Assembly (NCBI RefSeq): GCF_022846255.1
Contig: NZ_AP025682.1
Reading direction: 5' to 3' (one strand)
From: Escherichia coli
GTDB lineage: Bacteria; Pseudomonadota; Gammaproteobacteria; Enterobacterales; Enterobacteriaceae
Length of the DNA stretch: 64,000 bases
A program made the position numbers and the translations under genes. Below, in pieces: positions 30,494-31,655 of this stretch. Numbering within the stretch: the first letter of the stretch is position 1; each line of letters begins with the position of its first letter. The notes beneath the pieces were generated by a model that saw only the letters and a list, made by a program, of their open reading frames with translations, was not told the DNA's origin and searched no databases.

Positions 30494-31655
30494 CGCAGGA
30501 ACTTACAAGATTGAGAGTTACCGTTCTACGATGAGGACCGAATCCTTATATAAAAAACATAGGTAACTCTCATGCTTCATATCCGCAGTCCCGCCATCAA
30601 ACTTTAAGCCGATTCGCTCAATCTGGCGGATGATGGTGCTATGGATACGCTGATAAACCACAAGTGTAATGCCACTCAGCTTAAGAATCACGCAACCAGT
30701 GCTCCTGGCTAGGGTTACTTGTTCTTTCCCACTCCCGGTTAGCAGTGGTCAGCGATCAACTGCGTAAGCCGGGCGTATTTATCCCAAAGCGTGGAGTAAT
30801 ATCAGGTCTACGCTAAAAAAGTCAATTTATTCGGTTATCATGCACGAAAAGGGGACTTGTGGCGAGTATAAAAATAAGTCAGACCCAAAAACTACGTGGA
30901 GCTTTAAACACGGTTCGTATAATTTATTAGCAGCGATTTATTTTTACCCTTCTTTAATCAGTCATCATGATTAAATATTTTTTATCACAAGATTATCGCT
31001 TCTCTAACATTTTATTTTTTATTTATTATCAATTGATAAGAAAAAATTGTTAGTACGTTTTTGCAAAAAATTAAAAGTGTTGGGATACACTTAAACAAAT
31101 GAACAAAAACCAAACAAACTGAGATTTGCAATCAGAAAAAATTATTCAAGAGAACATCTCTAATTTATTGGTAGCGTCCATGAACGATGATTTCCTCACA
31201 ACCAAAAAGTAAAGAAAATCTTATGATAAGATATATTTGTAAATTAGTATTATTAACGTCAAAGATCTTTTCTTTTCTGCACCCTTACTTTGCAACGCAT
31301 AAAAAACAAATAAAATCAATAATATATGCAGAAAAAGTTATTTTACGTAAAAATAACATTAAATAAATCAAGACTATTGAACATCACTAAAACATTAGAC
31401 GTAATACACATTCACCCCCGCTCCTTGACTCAGGGTTTTAATATTTTTTGTTTCACATCATTGTAGAAAAAATCGCGCATTAAAAATGAGTTGTAGAAAA
31501 ACCGCACAATAAATATTTCATATTTAATCTATTGCGTAGAACTACTATTCAAAAAATCTTATTAATGAGATAATGAAATTACATCGATAACGTTCTGATT
31601 GCAGGCACACTTATCTGGGTGTGCCTCTTTTTTTTACAACTGTACACGGTGGCGT

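Follow-up and report, generated by a model that had tools for sequence, protein, structure and literature searches.

What fills the 1.1 kb between betA and an invertase gene at the edge of an Escherichia coli genomic island, a stretch in which long open reading frames (ORFs) are lacking? The tract occupies positions 30494-31655 of a 64,000-nucleotide stretch of E. coli DNA (hereafter the window; RefSeq assembly GCF_022846255.1, contig NZ_AP025682.1), and it was singled out by an original prediction made from the letters of the window. We identified it as the betA-ipbA (fimX/hbiF) intergenic region, the left edge of the fimX-hyxS-hyxRAB island, PAI-X; genes in the window run in the order betT, betIBA, a tyrosine invertase, two LuxR-like genes, an autotransporter and ykgH. 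We consider it likely that the tract is made up of three unrelated pieces: the fossil of an insertion sequence (IS) at 30470-30804, an AT-rich spacer at 30806-31450, and the control region of ipbA at 31451-31655.

The first piece explains the uneven base composition of the tract. GC content is 0.44-0.50 over 30500-30800 and falls to 0.22-0.30 across 30900-31500, which agrees with the extreme AT richness and the GC-richer block near 30560-30800 that were originally described. The lowest 500-bp GC value of the window, 0.254, starts at 30901, and about 25% GC over 500 bp of the tract compares with an average of 49% in the surrounding genome region. A sensitive DNA search found that 30507-30633 resembles ylbG, a gene present in most E. 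coli genomes and annotated as a pseudogene, ‘helix-turn-helix domain-containing protein’. YlbG, which begins MLHTANPVIKHK, represents the N-terminal part of an IS481-family transposase (Pfam HTH_29; NF033577, E 2e-25). E. albertii plasmids carry an intact relative of 346 aa, which scores 293 bits with the NF033577 IS481 model, above the cut-off of 224. At the DNA level the block is 76% identical to the intact IS over 157 nt (E 2e-26) and 74% over 62 nt, and it is 79% identical to ylbG over the left end of the IS and the first codons. A degenerate left terminal repeat, which aligns with the left inverted repeat of the intact plasmid element (L007, about 1399-1425, TGTATTAGTCGCGACTTGATCTGACAC) and also with the sequence upstream of ylbG, overlaps the end of betA. 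Homology thereby identifies the GC-richer block as a dead IS481-family insertion sequence on the + strand, a relative of the K-12 pseudogene ylbG. The block is GC-richer because the fossil itself has the higher GC, and the drop in GC starts where IS homology stops.

The decayed gene remnant that had been suspected in this block is the IS481 transposase, disabled by a stop, a deletion and a frameshift. Translated searches (tblastn) recover transposase codons 1-20, 48-71 and 92-109. Codons 1-20 are kept with a stop at codon 12, an in-frame deletion of 27 codons (81 bp) takes out the helix-turn-helix (HTH), codons 48-71 reach 30703 before a frameshift, and codons 92-109 correspond to 30751-30804. 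Nothing is left beyond codon 109 or so of 346, and the DDE domain is missing. We found no right end of the IS in the tract, where homology ceases near 30804, and a target-site duplication therefore cannot be defined. The block carries transposase homology with neither paired terminal repeats and a target duplication nor an intact DDE domain; it is a truncated fossil and not an intact IS481 member, and a missing right end is expected for such a fossil.

The 5′ untranslated region (UTR) of the dead element still holds a long-range stem. It folds at -30.1 kcal/mol (z -5.0), and the same stem in the intact IS folds at -30.2 kcal/mol (z -4.0). The stem is also retained directly after betA, at about -30 kcal/mol, in K-12, in N96 and in the island-bearing genomes examined, and the betIBA mRNA may now use it as a 3′ structure. 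The IS481-family element inserted at the extreme 3′ end of betA, with some betA alleles now reading into its terminal repeat. The betA stop of K-12 sits at the same IS-derived position. BetA is polymorphic in length at this point (30467-30493): an extra C after an A6 run gives a protein of 562 aa versus 556 aa in K-12 and ST131, and it is the IS-derived terminal repeat that supplies the added codons (LNRDLN) and the stop.

The IS fossil also resolves the protein-like reading of the reverse strand that accompanied the original prediction. The open frame exists, but the gene remnant does not lie on that strand; the pseudogene is on the + strand, and the reverse-strand ORF is there because it is the antisense frame of the fossil. 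It runs in phase with the + strand transposase codons, and a homologous antisense peptide can be read opposite the intact IS and opposite ylbG. In ylbG this same-phase antisense frame is poor in stops, with 7 in 347 codons versus 13 and 20 in the other two frames. The ORF has no Pfam match, its amino acid divergence between haplotypes is about 34% at about 20% nucleotide divergence, and Trh52, whose tract is 99.4% identical to that of the window, has a stop inside it. We rejected a reverse-strand pseudogene on the strength of the shadow frame, in phase with the IS codons, and of the stop in Trh52.

The fossil also records how the island came to be absent from other genomes. The tract is not the ordinary betA-ykgH spacer of K-12, which shares only its first 91 bp (30494-30584). 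K-12 aligns to 30353-30584 and to 36837-37031 of the window, with the hexamer ATATCC in both alignments, and the two ATATCC copies delimit the 6,258 bp that are missing from K-12-type genomes. The K-12 junction falls 13 nt into the transposase ORF, and in island-bearing genomes IS homology runs straight on past 30584. The K-12 state is a deletion because IS homology continues past the break, a continuity that an insertion could not recreate. These alignments establish the K-12 arrangement as a 6,258-bp microhomology deletion, in which the AT-rich tract, ipbA, hyxRAB and the greater part of the IS fossil were lost. We accordingly rejected insertion of the island into an ancestral K-12-like empty site, in that the K-12 junction cuts the IS remnant at ATATCC. 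Of 5,426 complete genomes, 3,259 cover a query that spans the K-12 junction, and 1,890 contain the tract. About 60% of complete E. coli genomes, those without PAI-X, thus share one deletion junction and have lost the segment instead of never having had it. The remnant does sit at the island edge and the AT-rich part is absent from K-12, as expected of the island boundary that had been proposed, but an integration scar does not describe it, as the left end of the IS also lies 3′ of betA in island-free K-12 and N96. No tRNA or tmRNA was found at the island edge.

Two side observations concern other parts of the island. A GC-rich palindrome, CCTGCAGGCAGCAGTATGCTGCCTGCAGG (36790-36830), lies just after the hyxB stop within the segment deleted in K-12-type genomes and is probably the hyxB terminator. 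In O157:H7 (TX 376-2, Sakai) decay has reached the whole island: ipbA has a frameshift and is truncated, hyxR and ykgH are each interrupted by an internal stop, and hyxB is split.

The tract varies strikingly among the genomes that carry it. The window haplotype is rare, with 86 of 1,890 genomes at least 95% identical to it, all others at about 80% and none between. In the last 555 bp there are at least four haplotypes, mutually 72-82% identical. A 96-bp segment that carries transposase codons 92-109 and is bounded by CGGTTA repeats is peculiar to the window haplotype; ST131 and O157 are without it. These 96 bp are still homologous to the intact IS and ylbG, which makes the window haplotype the older state; ST131 and O157 have deleted the segment.

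Right of the fossil, the sequence comparisons establish the AT-rich spacer as single-copy, non-coding DNA. The betA-ipbA locus is its only site, in the same 1,890 of 5,426 genomes; we rejected copies of the tract on plasmids, as no genuine plasmid carries it and the three ‘plasmid’ matches are megabase-sized records. The original observation that some 1.1 kb is without an ORF of 60 aa or more holds for 30494-31598 (1,105 bp), where the longest ORFs are 59 aa (+) and 57 aa (-), and this is the largest such gap in the window, followed by one of 860 bp. The accompanying view that this is unusual needs to be qualified: at this base composition, ORFs of 60 aa are also missing from 404 of 1,000 dinucleotide shuffles of the tract, so that their lack fits non-coding DNA and is no signal in itself. 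Further long ORF-free stretches in the window lie at 57972-58831 (860 bp) and 62855-63627 (773 bp), and about 59851-60400 is the sole other window DNA below 30% GC.

That the AT-rich part is instead a decayed protein gene, or encodes a real small protein, is highly improbable. In the O157/B1 haplotype, a minus-strand ORF of 44 aa (ECs_0356 of O157) is annotated by PGAP and in the Sakai record, and the window tract has ORFs of 44-59 aa. These lengths match shuffled sequence, in which the median longest ORF is 54-63 aa, and the O157 ORF, which the window lacks, comes from the most variable segment. Neither the small ORFs of the spacer nor the O157 ORF is conserved between haplotypes, and none of them has a Pfam match.

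Nor did we find a structured element in the spacer. There is no tRNA, Rfam family or fold better than shuffles in it, the ipbA-proximal terminator described below aside, and the two better-conserved blocks of the tract fold with z near 0 outside that terminator. A permissive Rfam scan of 29500-33500 returned no family at threshold, the only match being IS102 at 25.8 bits versus a gathering score of 46, aligned via the terminator. The A/T-tract periodicity that had been read into the sequence does not rise above shuffles: AA/TT periodicity near 10-11 bp reaches at least the observed peak in 74% of shuffles for 30840-31600 and in 9% for 30900-31400, counts of A/T tracts are close to those of shuffles, and phased A-tracts are absent. 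The high-affinity H-NS motif TCGATAAATT has two matches in the tract, each with two mismatches, and its counts across the window are those of chance. Of the features associated with H-NS silencing, the tract has the AT richness (GC 0.25-0.30, the lowest of the window) and neither phased A-tracts nor the nucleation motif; it is AT content alone that suggests H-NS binding or silencing. The AT-rich part most likely acts only as a spacer, to which its 25% GC would add a platform for H-NS-type binding.

Divergence along the locus changes sharply near 31450, in a neighborhood that is strongly mosaic. Left of about 31450 divergence is deep and similar to that of the bet genes versus O157 (Table). The central segment is still homologous between haplotypes (z 4.5-18 versus shuffles), and a swap of this segment for unrelated DNA was rejected on that ground. 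The pattern could come from a recombination breakpoint near 31450 together with a recent spread of ipbA-hyx, or from raised mutation in A/T runs. Deep divergence of the spacer beside near-identical island genes may reflect locally elevated mutation or regulatory haplotypes that have been maintained for a long time.

The third piece, directly upstream of ipbA, is where we find candidate regulatory elements. Two direct repeats of the form TTGTAGAAAAA(A)NCGCNCA, both copies of which are kept in the ST131 and O157 haplotypes, are candidate regulator sites. Downstream of them, a candidate extended -10 element, TGAGATAAT, lies in the highest-identity 50-bp window of the tract (96-100%); a consensus promoter scan, which needs four of six matches in both hexamers, did not flag it. 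Between this putative promoter and the gene, the + strand is predicted to form a hairpin with the hallmarks of an intrinsic terminator, a stable GC-rich stem-loop followed by a U-run on the transcribed strand. The predicted fold has a free energy of -14.8 kcal/mol (z -3.7), with none of 200 shuffles as good, and the signal is strand-specific, as no U-run follows the stem on the minus strand. The U-run ends 20 nt, and the hairpin 30 nt, before the ipbA ATG. Because 20 nt leave no room for a promoter, ipbA transcripts must cross this predicted terminator.

Variation within the hairpin respects its pairing. The ST131, O157 and MAG (metagenome-assembled genome) alleles carry a C to U change in the stem, which gives a U.G pair on the + strand and a mismatch on the other strand, and MOD1-EC7003 is altered in the loop only. 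Such retention of pairing through compensatory or wobble changes is expected of a structured RNA element under selection, and it is supportive and not statistical evidence because there are only five distinct versions. The hairpin would serve as an insulator or attenuator, and the position of the promoter is likewise a prediction. In this proposal, transcription running on from betIBA and from the AT-rich DNA would be kept out of the invertase gene, and invertase expression would stay very low, as a phase-variation enzyme requires.

The hairpin recurs in relatives of this invertase cassette. A second PAI-X-like cassette is found at another chromosomal site (L012-L014; E. coli contigs GCA_050854415.1 and others). 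It lies after budA/alsS-like genes and is composed of a pair of hyxR/hyxA-like genes, an autotransporter and an invertase with 81% identity to IpbA. At the equivalent place L012 has a hairpin of different sequence, with a 12-bp stem including two G.U pairs and a U-run (-19.5 kcal/mol, z -5.5), and L017, whose invertase is an 83% paralog, has the stem of the window with a 12-nt loop. The cassettes cannot be aligned further upstream than about 25 nt before the stem. These alignments establish the predicted hairpin and its conservation in paralogous cassettes. It may be that the hairpin is a conserved 5′ module shared by mobile invertase cassettes, namely ipbA-hyxRAB and at least two paralogs that combine invertase, regulators and autotransporter, and that it is a tunable attenuator that sets invertase dose and hence hyxS/fimS switching; we regard this as a rather unlikely extension, and if true it would represent an undescribed layer of phase-variation control. 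In a separate observation, K-12 fimE (L016, 2923-2952) has an 11-bp terminator-like hairpin with a U-run 86-115 nt upstream of it, between fimB and fimE (-16.1 kcal/mol, z -4.9), which is not homologous to the ipbA hairpin and similarly stands ahead of an invertase gene.

Two other readings of the proximal block have to be weighed against a constitutive insulator or attenuator. In the first, the leader is a regulated attenuator, in which a protein, a leader peptide or temperature modulates read-through into ipbA and so sets hyxS/fimS switching. The hairpin does stand between any possible promoter and the ribosome binding site, and it is kept in three invertase cassettes. A short motif, GATAACGTT (TAACGTTA in L017), precedes the stem by 8-12 nt in ipbA and L017, but L012 and Salmonella have only a degenerate version of it. 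There is also a mini-ORF of five codons, MKLHR in the window and MRLHR in other alleles, whose end lies 12 nt ahead of the stem, but it has a weak Shine-Dalgarno (SD) sequence and is absent from the paralogs. Nor is any alternative antiterminator pairing conserved, and because no conserved antiterminator was found, we rate constitutive attenuation above the regulated form, which we consider unlikely.

In the second reading the proximal block encodes a + strand small RNA (sRNA) that ends at 31603-31635, with ipbA expressed by read-through or with the sRNA acting in trans. The strong unidirectional terminator with its U8, the candidate extended -10 about 30 nt upstream of it and the fold of 31500-31640, which is better than shuffles (z -2.6), would all suit such a gene, but the fold signal stems from the terminator alone: 31440-31580 has z -0.1 on the + strand and +0.6 on the minus strand. 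What the paralogs share, just the hairpin and about 25 nt upstream, is too short for an sRNA body, Rfam has no family at threshold (the IS102 match noted above), and no RNA at this locus is named in the literature searched. With no Rfam family and a body that is neither better folded than shuffles nor common to the paralogs, an sRNA gene is quite improbable.

The three-part reading, with an insulator or attenuator ahead of ipbA, is the one we prefer, and several observations weigh against it. Divergence in the proximal block (Jukes-Cantor, JC, 0.066) is about that of synonymous sites in ipbA (dS 0.058), so the block is no more conserved than neighboring synonymous sites and conservation among ipbA alleles alone shows no constraint; we rejected such conservation as proof of constraint on the block after dS of the flanking genes had been computed. 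The spacer diverges 3-8 times more than the dS of island genes, which a plain ‘spacer’ model leaves unexplained, and neither the H-NS motif nor curvature-type periodicity is enriched in it. The argument for hairpin function draws on only three hairpin versions. The stem has been lost from the Salmonella orthologue STM0716, which keeps a loop-like motif; a hairpin of this kind is also missing before the start of fimB and of four relatives that are more distant (61-64% identity); and a conserved antiterminator alternative was not found.

The invertase itself raises the question of whether the tract could hold a second switch. IpbA passes the NCBIfam cut-off for tyrosine-type DNA invertases (NF007370, 250.8 bits versus a cut-off of 221). 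In the PAI-X literature, FimX acts on fimS and inverts hyxS, a promoter element located between fimX and hyxR (PMC6083910, PMC8777976, PMC11294581). The true hyxS switch in the window is 32235-32506, downstream of ipbA. It is bordered by a perfect 13-bp inverted repeat, TTCAAAATGTCAG, at 32235-32247 (+) and 32494-32506 (-). The right border is palindromic owing to a third copy, with one mismatch, at 32506-32518. With the window, ST131 and O157 as the reference orientation, O84:H7 Trh52 and Escherichia sp. MOD1-EC7003 carry 32251-32496 in inverted form; collinearity with the window at hyxS holds for about 1,780 of about 1,890 island genomes and fails in about 6%. A second FimX-dependent element within the tract, invertible or excisable through a hyxS-like sequence at 31106-31137, has almost negligible probability. 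This sequence is a 32-nt imperfect inverted match (75%) to the left repeat region of hyxS (32229-32260), but its core 13-mer matches with three mismatches, of which the window has 26 instances versus 24.5 expected, and the match is not retained in the ST131 and O157 haplotypes. Whereas hyxS inversions are readily seen, 1,889 of 1,890 genomes are collinear across 31106-31137. A Fim-type switch (fimS, hyxS, ipuS) inside the tract was rejected on this chance-level repeat and this collinearity.

Table. Features of the betA-ipbA tract and its neighbors, with distances between the window haplotype and the ST131 and O157 haplotypes (JC for non-coding DNA, synonymous divergence, dS, for genes).
Feature	Position	Strand	Description	ST131	O157
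betA				dS 0.013	dS 0.238
IS fossil	30470-30804			JC 0.20	JC 0.23
Degenerate IS left terminal inverted repeat	30470-30497	+	Overlaps last betA codons and stop (TAA 30491-30493)		
IS 5′ UTR long-range stem (predicted)	Arms 30507-30522 / 30562-30577	+	Occludes transposase SD and ATG		
57-aa ORF	30518-30691	-	Antisense shadow frame of transposase remnant		
Transposase pseudogene remnant	30572-30804	+	ATG at 30572; IS481 homology		
ATATCC microhomology	30579-30584 (left copy); 36837-36842 (right copy)		Right copy at hyxB-ykgH end		
96-bp segment with transposase codons 92-109	30743-30838		Bounded by CGGTTA repeats 30736-30741 and 30832-30837		
AT-rich spacer	30806-31450		GC about 0.25; single-copy, non-coding; most variable 31200-31350		
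Segment within spacer	30841-31050			JC 0.13	JC 0.15
Segment within spacer	31051-31450			JC 0.36	JC 0.34
ipbA control region	31451-31655			JC 0.066	JC 0.066
Direct repeats (candidate regulator sites)	31461-31479; 31491-31508	+	30 bp apart; read from sequence		
Candidate extended -10, TGAGATAAT	31566-31574	+	Predicted start about 31581, putative leader about 75 nt		
Intrinsic-terminator-like hairpin	31603-31635	+	10-bp stem and 4-nt loop (31603-31626), C, U8 (31628-31635)		
ipbA (‘also known as HbiF and FimX’)	31656-32219	+	Tyrosine DNA invertase; RefSeq annotation of near-identical genomes	dS 0.058	Alignment gapped
hyxR	32549-33343		LuxR-like; named in RefSeq annotation of near-identical genomes	dS 0.038	dS 0.049
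hyxA	33497-34258		LuxR-like; named in RefSeq annotation of near-identical genomes	dS 0.041	dS 0.029
hyxB	34267-36762		Autotransporter; named in RefSeq annotation of near-identical genomes		

The locus serves as a marker of uropathogenic E. coli, and its anatomy is now clearer. Both type 1 pili and hyxR undergo phase variation driven by FimX, and the predicted terminator is a concrete, testable element for keeping FimX low and shielded from the bet operon. An annotation trap is also corrected, in that the reverse-strand ORF and the 44-aa ‘hypothetical protein’ of O157 are not genes. General principles are unchanged by these findings. We found nothing on the betA-ipbA tract itself in the literature on the locus; the anatomy of the tract, the IS-based proof of deletion and the shared terminator are not described in the literature surveyed, and an earlier description is possible.

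Each part of the tract has a counterpart among known systems. The island matches PAI-X of extraintestinal pathogenic E. coli in its genes, their order, their position between betA and ykgH, and the hyxS repeats just 3′ of ipbA; the published accounts that we found differ in covering the genes and the downstream switch and not the 1.1-kb tract upstream. The fossil resembles ylbG and IS481 elements, with 79% DNA identity to ylbG and the same 5′ UTR stem and start-codon context. It is far more decayed than ylbG (a stop, the 81-bp HTH deletion, a frameshift, no DDE domain and no right end), and it lies at betA, whereas ylbG lies at mnmH and an RhsD element. The spacer recalls targets of xenogeneic silencing by H-NS in having about 25% GC over 500 bp at the edge of accessory DNA, and it differs in lacking enriched TCGATAAATT motifs and phased A-tracts.

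The fim locus of K-12 and bacterial terminators offer the remaining comparisons. The 1.4-kb nanC-fimB region is, like the tract, long, AT-rich, gene-free and upstream of a FimB-family invertase. The fimB upstream region holds distant regulator sites. The tract has no homology to the K-12 nanC-fimB or fimB-fimE regions; the best local matches to nanC-fimB are short, with E 3e-4 or worse, and fimB has no hairpin before it. Compared with leader attenuators, the ipbA leader has no competing antiterminator, leader-peptide logic or ligand-binding fold, and termination in it is a prediction. The hairpin is most like intrinsic terminators that work as insulators or attenuators, with its GC-rich 10-bp stem, short loop, U8 on one strand and place in a presumed 5′ leader. 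All components of the tract are of known kinds, and the locus is the described island.

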